A stretch of DNA of 63,313 nucleotides, counting the filler, from Hyphochytrium catenoides (lineage: Eukaryota; Protista; Hyphochytriomycota): assembly GCA_900088475.1 (NCBI GenBank). It is 12 parts of 12 records of this genome, joined end to end, with 100 filler letters (N's around TTAATTAATTAA, not from the genome) between each part and the next. Parts side by side here need not be neighbours in the genome. Positions count along the whole stretch, not along the records: positions 21,920 to 27,180 come from FLMG01002417.1; 11 more parts are not named here. The stretch is one strand, 5' to 3'. The number at the start of each line of letters is the position of its first letter. Position 1 is the stretch's first letter. Below the pieces are notes generated by a model. That model worked only from the letters and a program-made list of their open reading frames with translations, had not been told where the DNA came from and searched no databases. Both the position numbers and the translations under genes were made by a program. Shown piece by piece: positions 21,820-54,721 of the stretch.

Positions 21820-22231
21820 NNNNNNNNNNNNNNNNNNNNNNNNNNNNNNNNNNNNNNNNNNNNTTAATTAATTAANNNNNNNNNNNNNNNNNNNNNNNNN
21901 NNNNNNNNNNNNNNNNNNNGTGTAAGAGACAGTGCAAGAGAGCTAAAGAATTTTCTTCCGCTTCCTGAATTCCATTCTTGCGGTCAAGAGGAAGTGCCCA
22001 ACCGCCGTATGCCTGCTCCACTCCAGTACTAGCAGGCACGTGCTCTTCATAGTAAAGACAGGACAGAGCGGTGAAGGGAGCAAGAACGAGAGAGAGACAC
22101 AGAGTTTGTTTGAGCGGTCATACAGATAAGTGAGAAATGCCGAGTAAGAGGGAAGAGAGAGAGAGAGGAGAGAGAATGACAGAGAGAGAGAGGCACGAAA
22201 GACAGAGAGAGGGAGAGAGAGAGGGAGAGAA

Positions 22232-22264
<33 letters not shown>

Positions 22265-22670
22265 AGTGAGAGAGAGAGAGAGAGAGATAGCCAGTTCTAT
22301 GGGACACTGTGTGGATCTTTGAGGGTTTGTGTGTCAGTTCTGTGATGCACTTACTGGTCCGTTTTTTGACCAGCCGCCTTGCCTACATCTGATTGGCTGG
22401 AGTATCCTGACTACCCATCATGTGTTTGTCAGTCTTCTGTGGGTAACTTTTTCTCCACTTGAAATCCTGTGAGCAAAGCCCAAGTTGCTGCAAACAATGT
22501 GCTTGCAAACAATCGAATTTGCGAGCTGAAACTTTGGATTCAAGCAAATATACAAAATTTCCATTTGCTTGCTGAAGCTGTGGAAGCCATTGATGTTACC
22601 CATGGGTGCCTGCAATCATATTTGCAGATTCTGGCTGTCAAGATTCCGCGTTGGAAGCAATTATAAAGAG

Positions 22671-22730
22671 TGTGAGCAATTCAGAATGTGAGCAATTAGG
22701 AATGTTTTAGCAATTCAGAATGTGAGCAAT
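22671..22730. repeat. 16-18 bp tandem repeat (tgtgagcaattcagaa) x ~3.6
   Basis: Units at 22671, 22687, 22703 (variant) and 22721. Confidence 0.85.
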
Positions 22731-22999
22731 AGAGGTGTTGTTGGTGTTTGGTTACCCAAGACAAAACGGTATTGGTTCGGTGTTTCGATGAAACAGTTGT
22801 GATGTCATGTGTTTGTGACCCTTTATCCGGAAAGCATGAAAGAAGGGTTCAATCAACTGTTAGCGGGTTTATTGGTAGTAATAGAAAGAATGGTGCGTCA
22901 CACATGCGTTTCATAGCCATCATCCGTGGTGGCTATGAAACGGCAGAAGATAAGAAAAATATAGACCTATTAATATGAGTTCATTGATTGTCGCGAGGT

Positions 23000-23546
23000 C
23001 TAGGTTTGTAATTTGTTAAATCCACCGATCCGCAAAAGTGTGTCCTTCTTTCGCTGATAGCCGCCCTGTTTGGTGTTCTCTTTCGGGCACAAGACAGCGA
23101 GACTCTCCACGGGAGCAATGTTCTGGAGGCTCGCGGGAGTTGTTGGTTCGCAGAGACTGCTAACCGGTATCTTGTGCTCTAGGTTCCATTTCTTACCGTA
23201 GTTCATCTCCGAGAACTCTTTGTGGGCTGCCAATAGTTGCTTGATCTTCTTTTTGAATTCCTGTTTTGGTGCCAATGACTCTATTTCCCATGATGCTGTA
23301 TACAATGCCGTGCTCAGCGCATCTCGCTTGGATACCTGTACACCAGTTACGCCACATCTTGGTACGTTGGGAGTCGTCAGAGTATTCGTCAGCCCGGACC
23401 AGGCCCTGACACTTCTCGTCGCACTGTTGATGTGAACAGATCACCGTCTCCTGTTCTTTGCGAGCGACGTGCTGTAGCCGCTTTCGAAGGTGATGGGATT
23501 CGCTGAAGGTCAGTTGGCAGTGGCCTTGTTTGTGGACGTGAACTGG
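23000..23546 (-). pseudogene. HNH endonuclease domain of NCLDV/prasinovirus type, frameshifted at ~23265, probably the C-terminus of the pPolB ORF
   Basis: Repaired sequence RVIGTK/QEFKKKIKQLL..FSEMNYGKKWNLEHKIPVSS...ESLAVLCPKENTKQG matches the recalled pattern LGC..EFK.HIE.QF..M.W.NYG.WHIDHI.P...NLQPL...EN..KG. Confidence 0.65.
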
Positions 23547-26500
23547 TTATGATATGTGTCAAGTTCTCAGGGTTCCCGCTGCGAGCACAGATAATGCAGG
23601 TTGGTGTCTGGAAGCAATGCTGATGAGACCAATAGACATTGTCGTCTAAGGTATTCCGAAGCATATCTTTCTGTAGTCCGCTCCGTGAACAATGCGCACA
23701 GAAAGCTAGTCGCTCTGTTTTACAGTGCTGGTTGTTGTCGCATTTATGTTTGCAACCTCGGAAGAAACCGTGTGGCCTGCTCTGTGTCGGTGTTAACCAG
23801 TAACTCTTCCGATCACACATAGTCAATGTTTTGAATTCCCGCCGAGTCTCCATAGTTACACCACCACTTGTTTTGTGGTAGCACTTCTTGAAGATTGTAT
23901 TGTCAACTGATATCTGTGCGAGCTCAAGGTATGTTTGCAGGAACTGTTCGTGGGTTGTCTTGAGCTCTGTCTTGGTAACACCTTTGGCCTTGCGACAGTC
24001 TGTGCCGTCTGTGAACAACATCGACCGAAGCTTTGGGCCAAGAGCCACGAATTCTGCTATCTGAGCTTCCAGTATGAACTTGCCTGAAGTGATGTCATTC
24101 CTGTCCTTGGTAAAGAACTGGTCTCTTAGAGGGTCACTGAACTTGCTGAGGAAGTCTTCGTAGGGGTCTGCCTTGACGTTAATAAAAGCTGAATCGGTAT
24201 CCGTGTAGAGCAGTTCGAGGTCTTCCCTTGAGTATGTTTTCCATAGGCAATTGTAAGTAAAAGCATAGAGCAGTGATTTGGACATCCATAAGGCCCCTGA
24301 GCCCAAATGGCGGGGCGTTTTTAAGGTCACGGAAGCTCTGCAGCTGACCATGAGTGATGTCGCTGATAGTTTCTTGACACCAACGATTTCCTTTCCCTGG
24401 GCTCGCGTCAAACATTCAAACATTCCGTGGAGTCACTGACAATGAAGTCGGTCGTGTACTTTGACTCGTCCTGTAAGCTCTTACCGTATACCGAGTTCTG
24501 AATGAGCTTATAGTACTCTTTGAGCGCCTGGCCCTTTCTGATGAGGTCTTCGTTATGTTCTCGTTCTCCTTGAACGATCATGTCTTGGGCCTCACGTCGT
24601 TTCTGAGTGTAATAGTCGATGAATTCTTTGTAGACAATCTCAAATCGCATTGGTAGAATCTTCTTGACTCTCGAAAGAGTTACCATGTCATTCGCAAGCA
24701 GGAAAACGAGCGCATATGCAGGCAAAACATAGTCTGGCTTTGGATTGAGAGTCAACATCAATCTCTCTTCTCCCACACTGGGTTTCTTATTGATTGCTCT
24801 TTGGACGCGATTGCCGAAAAGTCCGAGGTTGCCTGGTGGCCGCTCCTTCGTGGGTAAGACAGGAAATGTCAGCCGTTCTTTCTGTTCGTCAGTGTAGAAC
24901 AGATCACACTGGACAAGACTTGTCATCAAACCGCCATCGTCATTAAGCTCATTGTTGATTTTGCCAGTCGCTTCTTCATACATGAGCTTGCGTAGGAGGT
25001 CTTTCGCTCGGTCCGTCTTGCTAAATTGGATGATTTTCTGTTGAAAAGTGCCGCACCGCTTGGGATCCTCTATGAAGTCACATACCGCTTCGCCTTTGTC
25101 GTCAGTTGGAAATATCAAAAGAGGCCTTGCCATTGCCCAAGGATGCATTGAATTTGCATCTAGACAATAGATCTTGGGTGACTCCGTTGCCTTCGAGTAG
25201 TGATTCAGGACAACAGTTAACCCTCCGTAGATTGATGTGTTTATGAACACTGAAGCTTTCTCGTTGGGAATGGTATGAATGGTAGTCCTTAGAAAGGAGC
25301 TCTTGAATATGTTGTCTCCTAACTGTGAGATAGTTAGATAGTTGAGGATTTCAAGGCCTGTGTCTTTGAAGACGGTATCTCGATAATTGGCGACCGCATC
25401 CATAAGTAATTCGACATCACGGAGACAGTAGTTTTCGGTGTACGCCTTAAGGTTTGGCTCTGGCAAGGAGTTCCACACTTTGAGAGCCTGCGCTTCTCGG
25501 TCGCTCCAAATTCCAGTTGGAAATGTGGACTCGGTGAACTGCACAGGATCCTTCAAGTACTCATAGTTGAACGGTAGCTTCGCTTTGGAGACACCATTTC
25601 CACGGCCAAAGTCTTCCAAGGACCCACCACCGCCCTGCTTCATAATGTCCGTGAACTGGTAGGATATAACTCTCTTGTGCTTCCGACTGTAGGTGTTCCA
25701 GCGTAGTTCTAGAATTCCTGACGCTTGATTGACCACCCTCTTAACTTTCTTGATATGGCTCAAGAGAAAAGTTGAGTCGTAACGTGACGAACAGAAGCCC
25801 AGAATCGGGACGACGATTTGGCTCTGGAGCAGTTCCTTTTGGAGCTTCCCATAGATGCAATCGTGCGAACAAATGTCTTCATCTTTATACCTGTCACACT
25901 TACAGAGGTGCTGGTATTGCGCAAGCTTCGTAGTTCTTGCTTTTAATATGTTCGTTAACAGGATGTCGGCAAGATCGTACCGCAGCCAATTGAGAAATCT
26001 CGCACCAACATCGTTCTTTGTCGGCACCAGAGGGTTAACCTTCGATGTGTTGGTATAGACAAACTTCTGCTTGTAAGTTCTGTCCATAGCCACAATCGTA
26101 TGCGGCAGGTGAACCTGGTTGTGGTCTATGATCGATTCAATGTCATAGCAAATATAGGTCTCATGTTGAAGTTGCTTGCCGTTGTTCAGCTCTTCGTAGG
26201 CTTTGTGGACCGGAGAGTACTTGAGGAACCCCTTGGCATATTTGGGGGCTATCTGAAGAGTCCGGCGCTTGCTGCAGGTATTCAAATGGTTGTGGTAGTA
26301 GTTTGGGCATTGCTGATACCTCCCAGAGCTCTTGCGTTTCCACTTCTTGCCGCAGTAGGGACATTTGGTTTGGTCTCCATAAATATGCAACTTATCGATG
26401 AGTGCGAAATGACATTCATTGTCATCAACCTTGGAAACATCTAAGAATATGTCCTCTGCCTCTTCGCCGGAGAAGATACTGCAAATGACTTCCCAGCTCT

Positions 26501-27180
26501 TGTTCTTATCTTGATAACAAATGAAAAGGTTGCAATTTGTTGCCTGGGCAAGGCTCCGTAACGCCTCGTACTCGAACGGAACTACTTGCTTCTGACATTG
26601 TTCTGTGTGAGAGACTTGGCCTCGCTCTTTGACTCGCTTGTCTGCGAAGTCGTGTAGTTTCTTGGGATCAGAGATGATGTCAGTGAATTCTTCCAGACCT
26701 AGAACGTCCAGAATTATTGGATTGGCAAGTCGCCCGTCATCTGAGGCTTTGCAGCCGTACAGATGGCAACAAAGATCCTGGGCCACCAGCCTTTGCAATG
26801 GCGAATTGTTCTCTCCAAACGATATGTCCTCGTAGAGCTTTCGGAACTTTCCAATTCCAATAGATCTGAAAACACGGAGGTCGTCCGCACCATGAACTTG
26901 AATGACACCAGACGCTTACCCCCTGACTTGTAGCCCTTGTGACCTATCTGTGGGCATTTGAGGACTTTGACAGTGAAGTCCTTTAGTTCATGAAGTACAC
27001 GATTTGACTCATTTAACTCAGTATCCATCCACGCCTCTAGCGCATTTTCGAGTGCAGTTGACAGCTCTGCGACCGCCTTGTAGTGAACACTTGGCGAAAG
27101 ACTCCGTTCGGAAAATAAAAGGACCTCGTACCTGTTGAGAGCAGTCCGGTCACGACGTACCAACCGGCGCGCTAACAGAG
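23389..27180 (-). pseudogene. polB: Protein-primed family B DNA polymerase (pPolB), frameshifted at ~26915 and 24408-24423, 5' truncated
   Basis: Exo I YDIES, Exo II GFCSSRYD, Exo III YCLRDV, SIYGG, motif A DANSMHP, motif B KLIQNSVYGK, motif C YTDTDS, ALGPK, KAKGV, terminal DRK...SRPHG; C2H2-like CPYC..H..C in the N-terminal part. Confidence 0.93.
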
Positions 27181-27280: not shown

Positions 27281-28071
27281 TCGTCCTCACAGGAGCCGCC
27301 GGTGCTGGCGCGGCAGCGTCTCTTGTCGTCGGCGCCGTAGAAGGTGTCGCTTGGGCACTTGATACTCTTGCCACTGCATTTCTCTTCCCTGTCACAGATG
27401 GAGACTGGTGCGCGGCAGACGTGGTCTGCGGACTGGAAGCCATCATCAGGGCAGGTGGCGCTGTCTCCCGTGCAGAGCTCAGCCACGTCACAGACGTCAC
27501 AGGCTGGGCGGCAGACTCTGTCCTTGCCATAGAAAGTACCATCAGACTTGCAGCAGACATTCTTGGGGTCGAGAGGGTCACATCTTCCCGCTGGCGGAGG
27601 TGTCGTCGTCGGCGCTGGTGGTGTGCCTTCTTTGGCACAGCAGACCTTGTCATTGTCACTGTTCCCGTCCTGGATGCAGATGCTTCCTTGCATGATCCCT
27701 GCAGGACAGACGCCGCCGTCGCACTGGACAATGCCCCAGCACTTCAGTCCTCCGTTTCCTGGTTGGCAGTCATCTGAGAATTTCTTGCAGGTGAAGCCCG
27801 CGGGACAGTTCCCTGTGCCGCCAGGAGCGCCGTTGCAGACTACTTTGCTTCCATCAGGACAGTTGCTAGAGCCTGTCTTTCCTGCTGCGTCGCCTGCGAG
27901 ACAGATGTCCGTGGAGTCGAGACAGCTGGTGCAGTCTTTGTTAGCGATGCCGCCCTGACAGGTGCCGACAGGGAAGAGCTTAGGGCTAAGGCACGCATCT
28001 AAGGATCCGGAGGCGCTCACGGTGGACAGAGCCGCGAAAAGAGAAGCAGCGAAGAGAGGAAGCTTCATCAT
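27281..28071 (-). CDS. Secreted cysteine-rich protein with tandem disintegrin-like repeats (3' end cut by linker)
   Basis: Signal peptide MMKLPLFAASLFAALSTVSA; Pro/Thr linker; repeats CR.....CD..E.C.G.S..CP.D (twice, third starting); intronless. Confidence 0.85.
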
Positions 28072-34933: not shown

Positions 34934-36249
34934 TTCTCACTCTTTGTCTCTTCCCACGTTCTCACTCCTCGTCTCTCTCTCTCTTTTCTCTTTCCTTCCT
35001 CGTGACCGATCAGTGATGGGGGCGCGGAGACGGCGGCGCATCAGCCACTCGTCTGCGTGGTCTTTCCACCGAATCTGGCGGGAATAAACTGAAAAGAACC
35101 CGCCTCCATCTCCATCCAAAGGCAGGAGGAAACTGTTGCTTCACTAGTTGCTCTCTCTCTCTCTCTGTCTCCTCTCTCTCTCTCTTCTCTCTCTCCATTC
35201 TCTCTCTCTTTCTTCGTCCTCCTTTCCAGAGATATGGTTGGCCACTCTTAGGCACTCTTATCCTGGCCGCACATGGAGTTCCATCACATTGTCTCTTTCA
35301 TACTTATTGGGCTTCTCGTGTCATTCTTCTTCTACTTTTTTCTCTCTCCGCTCGCCGATCTCTCTCTCTCTCTGGGTCTCTCGCTGATTTCTCTCTCTCG
35401 GTCTCTGGTTGATTTGTTCCCTCTCTCTGCCTCTTTCTCTTTTTTCCTCTCCCTTTCTCTCTCTCTGCTGCCTGCCTCTTTCTCTTTCTGCTGCCTTTCC
35501 TCTTTCCTTCTCCTCTCTCTCTCTCTCTCTNNNNNNNNNNNNNNNNNNNNNNNNNNNNNCCCTCCTCTCTCTCTCTCTCTCTCTCTTTTTCTTTCTCCCT
35601 CTCTCTGGTTGTCTTCTTGTCTTCTTTCCTCCTCCTCCATTTGACTGCGATGATTACACTGCACGGCATGTGCAACTTGTTTGTTCTTATCCTCTCTGTA
35701 TCTCTTTCTCTTTCGATTGTAAGAGAGAGAGAGAGAATCCTTGCTTCTTTCCTCGTCTCTCTCTTGCAGGTCTCTACAATTGACTGCGCGGGCAGATGAT
35801 CATGGAGGAGAGAGAGCAATTGAAGCTCATGACCAAAGCGAGGGAAAGAAGCCTGTTGTTAAGAGTCGACCAACAAGAGAGAAAGAGGAGAGACAATCCG
35901 ACAGCACCAGCGAGAGAGAGAGAAGGAAAGAGAGGGATCATGACGACCAGGCCCGCTAATCCAATTTTTAGATGTTGCCAGGTAACAAAAAAGAAGTGCC
36001 GACACCGTCCTTTCTGCCATCAATTCCTGCTGCCCAACGTGAGGATGAGTTGGTGTGTCTGCTCTCTCTCATTCACCGTCTCTCTCTCTCTCTCTCTCTC
36101 AATTTCCTTCTCTCTCTCTCTTCTCCCTGTAACTCCTCTTCTTCCATCCTCTCCTAAGCGCTTCAAGCAGATCTTGCGCCCATCATCTTCTGCCCCTCTC
36201 ATTTTCCAATCTTCCTCCGTCCCCTCGAGCAGCGCCAGACATACCAGAA

Positions 36250-36295
<46 letters not shown>

Positions 36296-36302
36296 ATCAA
36301 TA

Positions 36303-36947
36303 ATGAAGCTCTTCAGCGTCCTTTCCTCTCTCTCTCTCTCTCTTCTTCTCTCTCTCTCTGCCTCCGCTGCCCAGGAGGCAACCACCTCCTCTCCGCCTCC
36401 GTCCGACAAGGTGGATATCGCGCTCTTGACGGTCAACGGCTCAGGTTGCCCTCCAGGATCCGCCACGATCGCTGTCTCTCCTGACAACACGGCCTTCACC
36501 GTCACGTACAGCAAATATATGGCGGCTGCAGGCTTCGGTGTGAGCCCCATGGACGGGAGAAAGAACTGTCAGCTTGCCCTGCGCGTCCGTGTGCCTCAAG
36601 GCTTTACCTACGCTGTCGTGCAGGCGGATTATCGTGGCTATGCCTCGCTTGCCCAGGGCGCCAAAGGTCTTCAGCGGGCCAACTATTACTTCCAAGGCCA
36701 GTCTGCCACGGCTTTCATGGACCATCCTCTGGAAGGACCTTACGACGACAGCTGGCAGAACACGGACAAGACTGACGCAGCAGCAACGGTCTTTGCTCCC
36801 TGTGGAGAGCTGCGCAACCTGAACATCAACACGGAGTTGAGGGTGAACAAGGGCACTGCGGATCCCAACGCGGTGAGCTATATGAGCATGGACTCGACGG
36901 ATGGGGACATCAAGACCATCTACCGCTTCCAATGGAAGCAGTGCTAA
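36303..36947 (+). CDS. Secreted DUF4360 family protein (214 aa), actinobacterial-like
   Basis: VNGSGCPPG, SPDNTAFTVTYS, RKNCQL...VPQGFTYA, DYRGYA.L, YYFQG, APCG..RNLNINTELRV, MDSTDG, W..C; signal peptide from ATG 36303; intronless. Confidence 0.92.
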   Translation: MKLFSVLSSLSLSLLLSLSASAAQEATTSSPPPSDKVDIALLTVNGSGCPPGSATIAVSPDNTAFTVTYSKYMAAAGFGVSPMDGRKNCQLALRVRVPQGFTYAVVQADYRGYASLAQGAKGLQRANYYFQGQSATAFMDHPLEGPYDDSWQNTDKTDAAATVFAPCGELRNLNINTELRVNKGTADPNAVSYMSMDSTDGDIKTIYRFQWKQC

Positions 36948-51222: not shown

Positions 51223-53124
51223 TTATCTTTTACCCCTATTATAATAGAGCCACTCAACTAATTTATCCGCACACAATAGGTAGTTAACGCAGGACCGCTC
51301 ATGTCTCTTTGCATACCACGTAAGAGATTCTTGGCAGGTAGAAAGCTGCTGCCCACTTTCAGTTGCTTCTTGCGTTAGACGTTCGTGGCATTCGGAGAGG
51401 GCGTGACTGCATTCTTTTGCACCGTCCACAACATCTGCTTTCTTCCGGACCTCTCTCCGCATCACCTCAAGCTCTTGCCGAAACTCAGCACTAGATTTTT
51501 TCTTCTCTTGCTGCAGCTCTTGAATTCTCTCCTGTGCCTTTTGTAAAGCTCTTACAGGGTCGGAGCACCACACAGAGTTCACGTCGTCGAAGGTATAACC
51601 TCCTAGAGCGAGAGCCACCAGTAGAATGAGCAGTGTGGCAAATGGCAGTAGTAGAGTACGCCTCGACCGCCATGGTGACCACGATCCCAACTTCCGCCGT
51701 ATCTGTTGTCTCCAACTGTAATGGTCCTTTCTTACCTGGTGATACCGCCGTTCAGTCATCTCTTTTATTTCAGCTACCCCTGTGTGCATGATGAGCGAGC
51801 GAAGATAACTGAAGTCTGAATGATCGAGGTCAAAAGGATGACATTCTCCCCATTTGTACTCTCTGACTGGATAGTATGGCCGTCCGTCGGTAATGGTATT
51901 GCTGCAGATCACTGCATAGGGATAACTTGGAATGGTAGTTGTTTGTCTCGCATTGCTAATCAGCCCTATTGCTGCTTGTTGCTCTACCTCAGAGAAGGAG
52001 AAGAACGCCAAACCTTCATTAATGGCCCTCTGTCGTACTTCCGTCTTAAATTGACTGGTCTCTGCCACAGTCATGGTGTCGGCTTTTGCGATAATGGGCA
52101 GGACGGGCACACCAAAGTCGCTGATGCCCTTCATAAAGTTTATATCCATCTGCTTCACGCGATGTGCAGGGATGAAGAAAAGGCAAAGATCCACCCGAAA
52201 ATCGTCTTCCGAAGTAATGGGCTTCAACCTTGAGGCATCATCTGCAGCCTTTAGGTATTCTAGGTCCAGCCGTCGAACGTGATCCTGGATCATTTTGATG
52301 TCAAAGCTGATGTCATTCATTTCTCCGAAGCCAGGAGTGTCTTGTAGCCGATAATGTACAGTCGCGTCTCTGGAGTCGATAGTTATCTGCTTGCATAGCC
52401 TGTCGGGATTCTCTTTAAAGTCTTTTATCGTTGTGCTTTGTCCGTCATGCAACTCGATTTCACCGGTATACACCCCGAAGAGATTCTTTTGAAAAGTTGT
52501 TTTGCCGAGGCCAGCTTCGCCCACGATTAAATATGTTAACCGCATGACTTGTCTTCTGAAGGGAATACAAGAGTGGGCGTCTACTTGGACTTGGAATAGT
52601 CGCCCATTTGTAGCGTGCTGTTGTCGCATAACGTTGAGTGTGGCAGGTTCCTGCTGTTGTTGCTGTTCTAATAATGGCTGAGCAAACTGCTGGTGAGGAG
52701 GATTAGCTTGCTGCGGGACGTCTTGGTTCACAACCGGTGATCCCTTCTTCTTCCTTAACGCACTATAAGATGCATTAGGGATTGCTCTCTCACGAGAGAT
52801 GTCCTCGTCCTGCTTCTCCTCATTCCCCCTGTTACCTTGTTCTTGAATGACATTTTGTGCCATGCAAACAAAAGCTTCTGCTGGGATGCTGTTTGCTGCT
52901 GCAGGAGTGGTTGAGAGGACAGCATGCGCGACTCTCGTCGGAGGTGGTGCCACTGTGAGTCTTTTGTTACCTGCTACTTCAGAAGGTGACATGCGGCCGT
53001 CTGCACGAGACGGTACAGCAATACGATCAGGAGAGCTGGAAGCGTCAAGAGAGGAGGGCGTCCCGCCCTCGTCCTCCCCGTCGCCCCGTCTTCCTTCTTC
53101 TTCTTGTTGTTGATGTCGCTGCAT
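51223..53124 (-). CDS. Septin-family GTPase with C-terminal transmembrane helix and coiled coil (633 aa, intronless)
   Basis: G1 GEAGLGKT, G3 DTPGFG, RVDLCLFFIPAHR, G4 AKAD, PYAVI, septin-unique-element REYKWG...HSDF; TM LLLPFATLLILLVALALGG; heptad-rich tail. Confidence 0.92.
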   Translation of the reverse strand: MQRHQQQEEEGRRGDGEDEGGTPSSLDASSSPDRIAVPSRADGRMSPSEVAGNKRLTVAPPPTRVAHAVLSTTPAAANSIPAEAFVCMAQNVIQEQGNRGNEEKQDEDISRERAIPNASYSALRKKKGSPVVNQDVPQQANPPHQQFAQPLLEQQQQQEPATLNVMRQQHATNGRLFQVQVDAHSCIPFRRQVMRLTYLIVGEAGLGKTTFQKNLFGVYTGEIELHDGQSTTIKDFKENPDRLCKQITIDSRDATVHYRLQDTPGFGEMNDISFDIKMIQDHVRRLDLEYLKAADDASRLKPITSEDDFRVDLCLFFIPAHRVKQMDINFMKGISDFGVPVLPIIAKADTMTVAETSQFKTEVRQRAINEGLAFFSFSEVEQQAAIGLISNARQTTTIPSYPYAVICSNTITDGRPYYPVREYKWGECHPFDLDHSDFSYLRSLIMHTGVAEIKEMTERRYHQVRKDHYSWRQQIRRKLGSWSPWRSRRTLLLPFATLLILLVALALGGYTFDDVNSVWCSDPVRALQKAQERIQELQQEKKKSSAEFRQELEVMRREVRKKADVVDGAKECSHALSECHERLTQEATESGQQLSTCQESLTWYAKRHERSCVNYLLCADKLVEWLYYNRGKR

Positions 53125-54721
53125 CGGCTCGCTGCTTGCTACTGTTGGTCTGATCCTTTATTGCTTCGCGGTATATTACGTCTGTTGTCTTGCTTCTCCT
53201 GCTGCTTGCGTAGTGGTTGCCGGCGCGGCTGCCGCCGCCCTTACCCAATTTGTACTACTTCTACTTGCGGCAGATAGCAGAATCTTGGCCGGCACCTTCG
53301 TTGTGAGGTGTACTCTAAAAGGAAAAGTGATGGACTTCTACTACGCCACAGTCATGGTGCTCGCATCCTAGGCCATGCTGCTGTGCAATCCGCGTTACTA
53401 ATAATATTAAAAGCTATCAACACTGCTTACAATAAGTTCGTCCTTCTCCTCCTCCTGCTCCTCCGCTTTACTACTACCAATAATAACGACAGATCCTACG
53501 AGTGAACTGCTGGTGGTGGAAAGATAGGTACTGGTGAATGATATTTTTGTCAGGAAGACCTCACAACTGTGAACGATAGGATTACTAATGGCAGATTGTT
53601 GCTTCCGCGATTTGTCTTCGACGTGACATAGCAGACGTCCGTCACTAATAGACTGAAGAAGAAAACGTTCTTCCTGTTCAAATCTAGATGTTTATTTTTG
53701 TCAGGACTCATCATGATGTTCGGGAAGCAGAAGCCTTCGTTTCCTTTCTTTGCAAGCCTCAAAGAAGTTCAGCAAGGTTGAACCGCGAGGAGCATCCTGG
53801 TTGGTGGTCCCCTGCCAATTCGGGTGGTGAACTGACTGACTGAGCTGGTTGGTGGGCTGTGACCTCTTGGTTTTGTAACTTCTTCTTGTTCTCTATTTCG
53901 AGAAGATCAGTTTTTTTGTTATAGGAAGCAATCCAAGTTCGGAGGAGCCGTTTCTTCTCCTTCTTGGGGCGTTTATGCATTTTTCGGTAAGGGTTCGGAG
54001 TACAAGGACTACAAATAACGCTATGTATTTATAAGAATAAGAATAATAAGACACGGGCGGCTCGACGCGGGCTCGCCGATGGTGAAGGGCAAGGGGTAAT
54101 CCAGCCCCCTCCGGATGGACCTTAGGGAAAGGTAGGTAGTTCTAAAAATAGAACCTGCTCTACTAGAAAGGGTGGAGTGGTGCTTGTTATTTCATCTTTC
54201 CTTGCCATGGACTGGATGAAGACCAAGAACTACACATCGTTGGGGTCAGACCCGAGCGCATGTCCCGAGACTGAGTCCCGGGTCATGACGGCCTGTAACC
54301 TCAAAGTTCTATGGGTCCTACCTCCTGGGCTTTGGTGATAGAGTGATGTCTCTCCCAAGCCATGCTTTGCCATACATCCACCCAAAGTTGGGACGTGTTA
54401 CCGCCAATACGTTTAGTGTGACGGATTGTAAGCAAAGGTTTGGACGGGTGTGAAAAAGTTGAAGACTCGAGTAGCACCAAATCGACCCGGACACGTTTGT
54501 GTCACTCAGCTTGTAAGCCTCAAACACTTTTGGCCACTTCCTTTCTACCCACAACAGTCCGTTGCCTAGGAACTGGGCTCACATCATCCACCTCATCAGC
54601 AGGTGGGATCACAATTAGAAGAAGAGCAGTTCGATGTAGGTTGTAACGCCCTAACTTATTTAACTAGCTTGGCTGGAGGGCATCATCACCATCACTGGTC
54701 CTTTTTTTCGTCTCATCACTG

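Follow-up and report, generated by a model that had tools for sequence, protein, structure and literature searches.

What this locus asks is whether a family B DNA polymerase that uses a protein primer (pPolB) can run on, within one polypeptide, into an HNH endonuclease, and what such a nuclease would do for the element encoding it. We analysed 63,313 nucleotides (nt), fillers included, from Hyphochytrium catenoides (GenBank assembly GCA_900088475.1), in which 12 parts of the genome are joined end to end; this whole stretch is called the window. The gene in question lies on contig FLMG01002417.1 (positions 21920-27180). A first-pass annotation had proposed here a fusion of a pPolB, a zinc module and an HNH endonuclease, the last of which might nick or cleave for integration or homing without an integrase. 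We found that the contig holds a frameshifted, likely dead copy of a multi-copy Polinton-like element and that its pPolB is, as judged from reading frames and family alignments, C-terminally fused to an HNH endonuclease; the zinc module as a conserved part and the absence of an integrase were not supported.

Results

The decayed polymerase gene of the window

The gene consists of five coding pieces on the minus strand (27130-26917, 26915-24411, 24432-23551, 23546-23292 and 23287-23000). The second, of 835 amino acids (aa), matched PF03175 in Pfam (E value 3.3e-17), and the ExoI-III and PolA-C motifs were all found in the window polymerase, as in a pPolB. As annotated at first, the polymerase meets no stop at its usual end (DRK..SRPHG, at 23781) and reads on into a Cys/His-rich stretch, beyond which, after frame breaks, an HNH-type domain follows. 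Four breaks were counted from the contig edge, two within the polymerase (near 26915 and at 24410-24430) and two between the polymerase and HNH domains (near 23548 and near 23290), where only two repairs had been proposed. The repair at ~23548 is plausible by composition and fixed by no relative, the sole paralogous contig spanning it being itself out of frame. The other had been placed at an A4 run (23264-23267), which was excluded as the last break: the alignment of the intact relative P0001 with the HNH frame starts at 23287 (83 aa at 40%, E 5e-16), the HNH family profile aligned across ~23290 when the window pieces were joined by X, and an indel near 23290 is also present in a paralogous contig. 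Both ends of the gene had been misplaced as well. The reading frame runs 20 residues beyond KENTKQG, the proposed end of the protein, to a stop at 23000-23002, and the contig edge, from which the gene had been counted, is occupied over its outermost ~50 nt by a separate repeat with a depth of 34094, compared to ~200 for window-identical pieces. Contigs diverge at 27126-27133, and a 1927-nt paralogous contig extends ~1.4 kb upstream beyond 27120. The edge repeat (27131-27180), by which the polymerase gene is interrupted, was not found elsewhere in the window.

Decay is also visible outside the breaks. The 835-aa piece contains a putative vOTU-like motif, seen by eye in the alignment. The window has Arg at the putative catalytic Cys position of this motif (26885-26860), consistent with decay; Cys was present in 5 of 5 intact rows covering the site. 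Comparison with P0001 gave 32% over 833 aa for this piece and a weak match of the N-terminal remnant to residues 369-424 (E 0.032).

Intact relatives carry both domains in one reading frame

The polymerase end was searched against 1.84 billion protein representatives, which gave 455 matches at E <= 0.001; the tail is carried by 13 of the best 150 of these 455 matches, in one case only partially. In the best match, P0001 (1646 aa), the polymerase, linker and HNH pieces of the window were matched in order within one open reading frame (ORF). Further searches added the proteins P0152 and P0155 and the loci L001, L002, L003 and L165. Six full-length fusions in a single frame were thus available: P0001, P0009 (1464 aa), P0152, which is L003 (1523 aa), P0097 (1615 aa), P0155 (1792 aa) and L165 (1734 aa). 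L001, cut at its 5' end, is also fused in a single frame, and the fusion is legible at the DNA level in L001, L003 and L165. P0097 and P0155 bear Trinity names in EukProt and thus come from transcript assemblies. A stop followed by a separate start between polymerase and HNH domain was seen in none of the intact relatives. Pairwise polymerase identity among the six full-length proteins is 23-53%, and the catalytic motif of the nuclease is kept across that range. From these reading frames, we regard the pPolB-HNH fusion as real. Word-based protein searches with the window pieces gave no matches, and neither did viral-contig scans, the queries being the HNH piece, the polymerase end and, from L165, the integrase. 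A viral-contig scan with alignment A5 gave six loci, and both of those inspected were conventional polintons without the tail.

We then placed the fused proteins in a tree of the polymerase end, from which 12 of 159 proteins (polymerase segment outside 150-360 aa or unmatched) and four near-duplicates had been excluded. In this tree, 23 of 144 rows form one clade (support 100), made up of the window, 15 other HNH-bearing rows and seven rows without HNH. Six of these seven stop before the polymerase end and the seventh in the helix ahead of the HNH domain, so that no complete tail-less member was seen. Outside the clade, the tail occurred in 0 of 121 rows. An IQ-TREE run with 53 rows recovered the clade at 100/100, with P0001 as the row nearest to the window.

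The Cys/His-rich linker is a lineage-specific feature

Of the 117 residues of the window linker, 11 are Cys and 13 are His, compared to ~5% Cys plus His in the polymerase piece. It is also unusually long: the polymerase end and the HNH Trp lie ~193 aa apart in the window, compared to 104 in P0001 and 60-98 in 13 further fused proteins. Only its last Cys/His cluster is common to P0001 (E 1e-6), which alone among 14 intact tails measured has a Cys-rich linker, and a short one. The zinc module, which had been taken as part of the fusion architecture, is thus not conserved, and the Cys/His stretch is better described as a lineage-specific side feature that may bind zinc. The stretch is also found in a paralogous contig at ~86-88% identity. 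It matched no family in Pfam, and the ESM Atlas gave nothing usable. An intron within it was set aside, since both frames are open across the stretch and rich in Cys and His.

The window copy belongs to a multi-copy family

About 80% of window words are present in three DNA runs of one study, one of which may have given rise to the window. Contigs from these runs include window-identical pieces and others 77-90% alike. One contig of 7060 nt is collinear with the polymerase and HNH pieces, and another of 1128 nt, itself out of frame, spans the polymerase end, the Cys/His stretch and the start of the HNH domain at ~86-88% identity. A decayed member of a multi-copy family is the best description of the window copy.

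The C-terminal domain belongs to an HNH family of phages and giant viruses

A profile built from 12 fused tails matched ~100 free-standing ORFs in phage and giant-virus contigs (E down to 1e-28), and the window HNH piece scored E 7.8e-19 against a fused-tail profile built without it. PF01844 was matched by 35 of 71 alignment rows. With the 71-row alignment, the HNH domain of the window was modelled at a pLDDT of 77 as two strands followed by a helix, the predicted beta-beta-alpha arrangement of an HNH-like fold; folding from the single sequence was poor (pLDDT 55). Fold matches were mostly to HNH nucleases, including colicin and pyocin DNases. HNH proteins of Marseillevirus, Megavirus, Bodo saltans virus and phages (Caudovirales) were matched at TM ~0.5-0.6, and T4 endonuclease VII, GmrSD, Cap5, ZRANB3 and Cas9 weakly (Z 2-3.7). 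A PDB sequence search with the HNH piece gave no matches, and with the HNH profile only ZRANB3 HNH (E 0.14) and Cas9 HNH (E 1.2); the HNH-named clusters of the ESM Atlas at 0.86-0.89 are a lead only. By profile and predicted fold, the C-terminal domain of the window is an HNH domain of this free-standing family, which occurs in giant viruses, as had been claimed, and in phages too.

The active site is well conserved. In the free-standing rows, the D, H and first N of the D-H..N..N motif are invariant (68 of 68) and the last N is present in 65 of 68. After exclusion of P0005, P0153 and P0154, whose tails are aberrant or cut, the whole motif was found in 14 of 15 intact fused tails and its His in 15 of 15, the exception being P0001 (E-H..N..N). 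The window copy has E-H..S..N, that is, both substitutions that had been pointed out, and does not carry the catalytic D-H..N..N. E for D is likely a lineage variant, since it is also found in intact P0001. S for N was found in the window only, in none of the 68 free-standing rows and none of the 15 intact fused tails, and is likely decay, because it is confined to a copy broken in four places.

Fused and free-standing members differ upstream of this core. The free-standing ORFs (n = 96) reach at most 371 aa (median, 213), none being polymerase-sized, and have a median of 165 N-terminal residues ahead of the HNH Trp, whereas only 60-104 aa separate this Trp from the polymerase end in 14 fused proteins. 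The HNH core of the fused proteins lacks zinc-binding Cys pairs. Two or three free-standing family HNH genes lie close together on each of the contigs L053 (1490-3189), L121 (1707-3926) and L134 (7093-10261), as expected for a mobile nuclease.

Fused polymerases lack the internal HNH of most other sampled pPolBs

Using a local profile, we looked for an internal endonuclease-VII-like HNH domain, located before ExoII, and found it in 0 of 9 clade proteins; among 53 others at least 750 aa long, 39 have it. Those of the latter left out of profile building gave 18 of 32, and PF02945 of Pfam was matched in 21 of 37 outgroup proteins at E <= 0.01. The 835-aa piece of the window has no such domain. 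The slot before ExoII is occupied by a small Cys/His knot in most clade proteins and by none in L165.

Two relatives of the window element encode an rve integrase

L165 is a complete element of 13.2 kb with inverted repeats of 222 nt (100% identical), sitting between eukaryote-like genes. It encodes an rve integrase (E 4e-15) directly upstream of the 1734-aa pPolB-HNH gene. In L001, an rve integrase (E 7.7e-18) lies 3.6 kb downstream of the fused gene, on the opposite strand. The proposal that these elements do without an integrase thus fails in both relatives with several kb of context, and the HNH domain is no stand-in for an integrase in these members. A Walker A packaging-ATPase motif (G-x4-GK[ST]) was found in no frame of L165 or L001. 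Seven further ORFs of L165 (1019-4968 and 11634-12746) have no assignment; one encodes a charged protein of 447 aa, and another, of 370 aa, weakly matches a zinc finger. None of the seven matched a capsid, penton or protease in Pfam and PHROGs, nor did the two largest among PDB sequences; a divergent capsid could escape such searches, and divergent capsids can go unrecognised (PMC10120064).

In L165, the target site shows at most a self-complementary 4-nt repeat, indistinguishable from the inverted repeat. Polinton/Maverick elements have a target-site duplication of 5-6 bp and AG..CT ends. The L165 contig (1-15660) is filed in a Pseudomonadales metagenome-assembled genome; it starts with CCCCAAAA repeats and carries a Kelch/zinc-finger gene besides the Polinton-like element. 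The CCCCAAAA repeats are presumably ciliate telomere, and the contig is likely misbinned ciliate DNA. Near its right inverted repeat, the element also contains an inverted repeat of 52 nt (87%) and a short array of CCCCAAAA units (13064-13224 and 13471-13499), which could mark a fragmentation or telomere-addition site. In both L002 (2512-2961) and L003 (5902-6285), the gene next after pPolB-HNH encodes ankyrin repeats.

Features of the contig and other parts of the window

The features of the contig are collected in Table 1. Its non-coding stretch probably includes a terminal inverted repeat, and the opposite end of the element lies outside the contig. Other contigs of the window encode a septin as a single ORF with a C-terminal hydrophobic segment and coiled coil (51223-53157, minus strand; PF00735, E 1e-41), a secreted-looking DUF4360 protein (35784-36947, plus strand; E 4e-67) and a secreted-looking Cys-rich protein with a weak disintegrin-like match (27283-28030, minus strand; E 1.7e-4), cut by the contig edge. 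Microsatellites of the (GA)n type occur among the window contigs. The genes on these other contigs indicate a eukaryotic, likely unicellular, host.

Table 1. Features of the polymerase contig, in window positions
Positions	Strand	Feature	Boundary or basis
27131-27180		Very high-depth repeat, outside the polymerase gene	Contig cut here; bin depth 34094
26917-27130	-	Remnant of pPolB N-terminal region (putative terminal-protein position)	Break near 26915
24411-26915	-	835-aa piece: vOTU-like motif, zinc finger, ExoI-III, PolA, PolB	Break near 24410-24430
23767-24426	-	PolC (YTDTDS), palm/thumb, usual polymerase end DRK..SRPHG	Motifs, P0001 alignment
23412-23766	-	Cys/His-rich linker, ~117 aa, putative zinc-binding	Break near 23548
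23292-23411	-	Helix leading into HNH domain	Break near 23290
23000-23287	-	HNH (beta-beta-alpha-metal) endonuclease domain, E-H..S..N for D-H..N..N	Stop 23000-23002
22907-22942		Hairpin, 16-nt arms, 4-nt loop, 60 nt beyond stop	Sequence
22290-22999		Non-coding element end abutting (GA)n microsatellite	Multi-copy cover and loose ends in 22400-22890

Discussion

A proposed replication nickase tethered to the polymerase

The lack of the internal HNH, the short part upstream of the core and the long retention of the catalytic motif together suggest a relocated nuclease that works tethered to the polymerase. We give a roughly even chance to the reading that the fused HNH domain, tethered to the polymerase, nicks replication intermediates of the element, the nuclease having moved to the C-terminus, with a separate rve integrase inserting the element. 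A free-standing phage or giant-virus HNH protein would have been captured once, at the base of the clade, and would have replaced the internal endonuclease-VII-like HNH that most sampled outgroup pPolBs carry. Having lost most of its own N-terminal arm, it would rely on the polymerase for targeting. Its likely job would be the nicking or resolution of DNA in branched, hairpin or panhandle form that arises from excision and strand-displacement synthesis.

Several observations weigh against this reading. The internal-to-terminal swap is a single evolutionary event, so that the counts behind it are not independent, and a clear internal HNH is missing from 14 of 53 outgroup proteins, which may mean that a nuclease is dispensable. 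The HNH tree, in which the fused label needs 3 changes compared to a shuffled mean of 13.9, rests on 91 columns and is too short to establish a single origin of the capture; the IQ-TREE bootstrap had not settled. The HNH row or piece of the window itself matches no Pfam family, and the fold matches are individually weak (best PDB E 0.68; best VIA Z 3.7, with a root mean square deviation of 3.7 over 62 aligned residues; best BFVD E 0.02). Element context comes from two loci only, and the window contig, being cut, cannot show its own integrase. Finally, similar domains have been interpreted by others as homing-endonuclease parasites (PMC11161782, PMC5499653).

This last interpretation leads to a possibility that we consider rather unlikely for the fused clade, namely that the HNH domain is a homing or competition nuclease, which would cut HNH-less rival elements or co-infecting giant viruses and thereby spread its own replication module. 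Replicase exchange driven by homing endonucleases has been proposed (PMC11296320, 10.64898/2026.10.13.758929). The catalytic motif is retained, and the family holds free-standing phage and giant-virus proteins, including an 'intron encoded endonuclease' of Bodo saltans virus (Foldseek probability 0.96, E 0.27). However, the free-standing proteins extend much further upstream of the core, where their specificity arm would lie, than the fused form does, and the HNH domain is fixed across a deep clade in which no complete HNH-less member was found. Homing nucleases are usually gained and lost repeatedly. Homing through an intein is opposed by a linker too short for a Hint domain and by the lack of a C-extein, most proteins ending soon after the HNH domain.

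It is improbable that the HNH domain persists without catalysis, as an appendage for DNA binding or structure, even if only in the lineage of the window and P0001 with its added zinc-rich linker. The E for D of both proteins, the S for N of the window and the confinement of the Cys/His linker to this sub-lineage would fit such a role, but all four motif residues are kept in nearly every intact tail, and decay accounts for the S in a copy broken in four places. The first-pass idea that the HNH domain carries out integration in integrase-less elements draws on the lack of an integrase gene in the 5.3-kb window contig, the 6.3-kb L003 and the 3.2-kb L002, all of which are cut short; it appears very improbable in view of the rve genes of L165 and L001. 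That polymerase and HNH domain are separate neighbouring ORFs, joined by frame repair only, might be suspected from the two window breaks between them and from the fact that no intact copy from the same genome was read, but it is already refuted for the clade by the single ORF of P0001 and by L001, L003 and L165, and hardly any likelihood is left to it.

Comparison with known replicases

The window polymerase and its relatives resemble the pPolB of Polinton/Maverick elements (TP-vOTU-Exo-Palm; Krupovic et al. 2024, PMC11161782) in being long protein-primed polymerases that are extended at the N-terminus and have, at the vOTU position, a Cys/His motif, and their elements share with Polintons the rve integrase (L001, L165) and terminal inverted repeats (L165). 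They differ in the C-terminal HNH and the missing internal one, and the complete L165 differs in having no Walker A packaging-ATPase motif. The pPolB2 of nematodes and oomycetes also has, within the pPolB polypeptide, an HNH domain with conserved catalytic residues, but this domain is inserted, PacI-like and equipped with zinc-binding Cys (Jeong et al., 10.1101/2023.08.22.554363), whereas, going by this description, ours differs in following the polymerase end and in having a core free of zinc-binding Cys pairs. Tlr1-like pPolB-S1H of Polinton-like viruses is likewise a pPolB-derived replicase with a C-terminal nuclease, HNH or GIY-YIG, which is preceded by a superfamily 1 helicase and accompanied by no exonuclease (PMC5499653, PMC11161782); the fused clade retains ExoI-III, has no helicase and carries its HNH, in 14 proteins, 60-104 aa from the polymerase end. 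With the free-standing or intron-encoded HNH proteins of giant viruses and phages, the fused tails share the core motif and the predicted fold and not the longer N-terminal part. L165 resembles the transpoviron-like replication-integration modules (10.64898/2026.10.13.758929) in combining a pPolB with a DDE integrase and no recognised morphogenetic module, and differs from them in that its replicase is not pPolB-S1H but a full pPolB including exonuclease and HNH, and in being integrated between host genes. Also described are HNH-helicase fusions in Polinton-like viruses (PMC12220804) and a fusion of helicase and pPolB (PMC12721341); in casposons, HNH genes are separate (PMC4046053).

The first-pass annotation did not recognise the architecture as described. 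This stands for a full pPolB ending in HNH, of which no description was found in the literature covered, supplements and most subscription papers lying outside that coverage; it does not stand for internal HNH domains or for C-terminal HNH domains on pPolB-helicases, which are already known.

Implications for Polinton-type elements

Fused polymerases are easily missed, the 1734-aa protein of L165 having no Pfam match at E 0.05. L165 is a candidate Polinton-type element without a packaging ATPase, and as such bears on whether all such elements are viruses, as argued in PMC10120064. Tentatively, and with the chances rather against it, the clade may represent an old, uncatalogued lineage of capsid-less self-synthesising protist transposons of ~13 kb, with inverted repeats, rve and pPolB-HNH, which swapped its internal endonuclease for a captured viral C-terminal HNH; the tethered nickase would then be a working part of replication and no parasite. 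In the literature covered, nuclease domains of Polinton polymerases are taken for invaders, either homing endonucleases or inteins. That a deep clade is without the internal HNH and has kept the catalytic motif intact at the C-terminus suggests a function for the element itself, and since deletion or separate assay of a terminal domain leaves the polymerase fold undisturbed, this question of function is testable.

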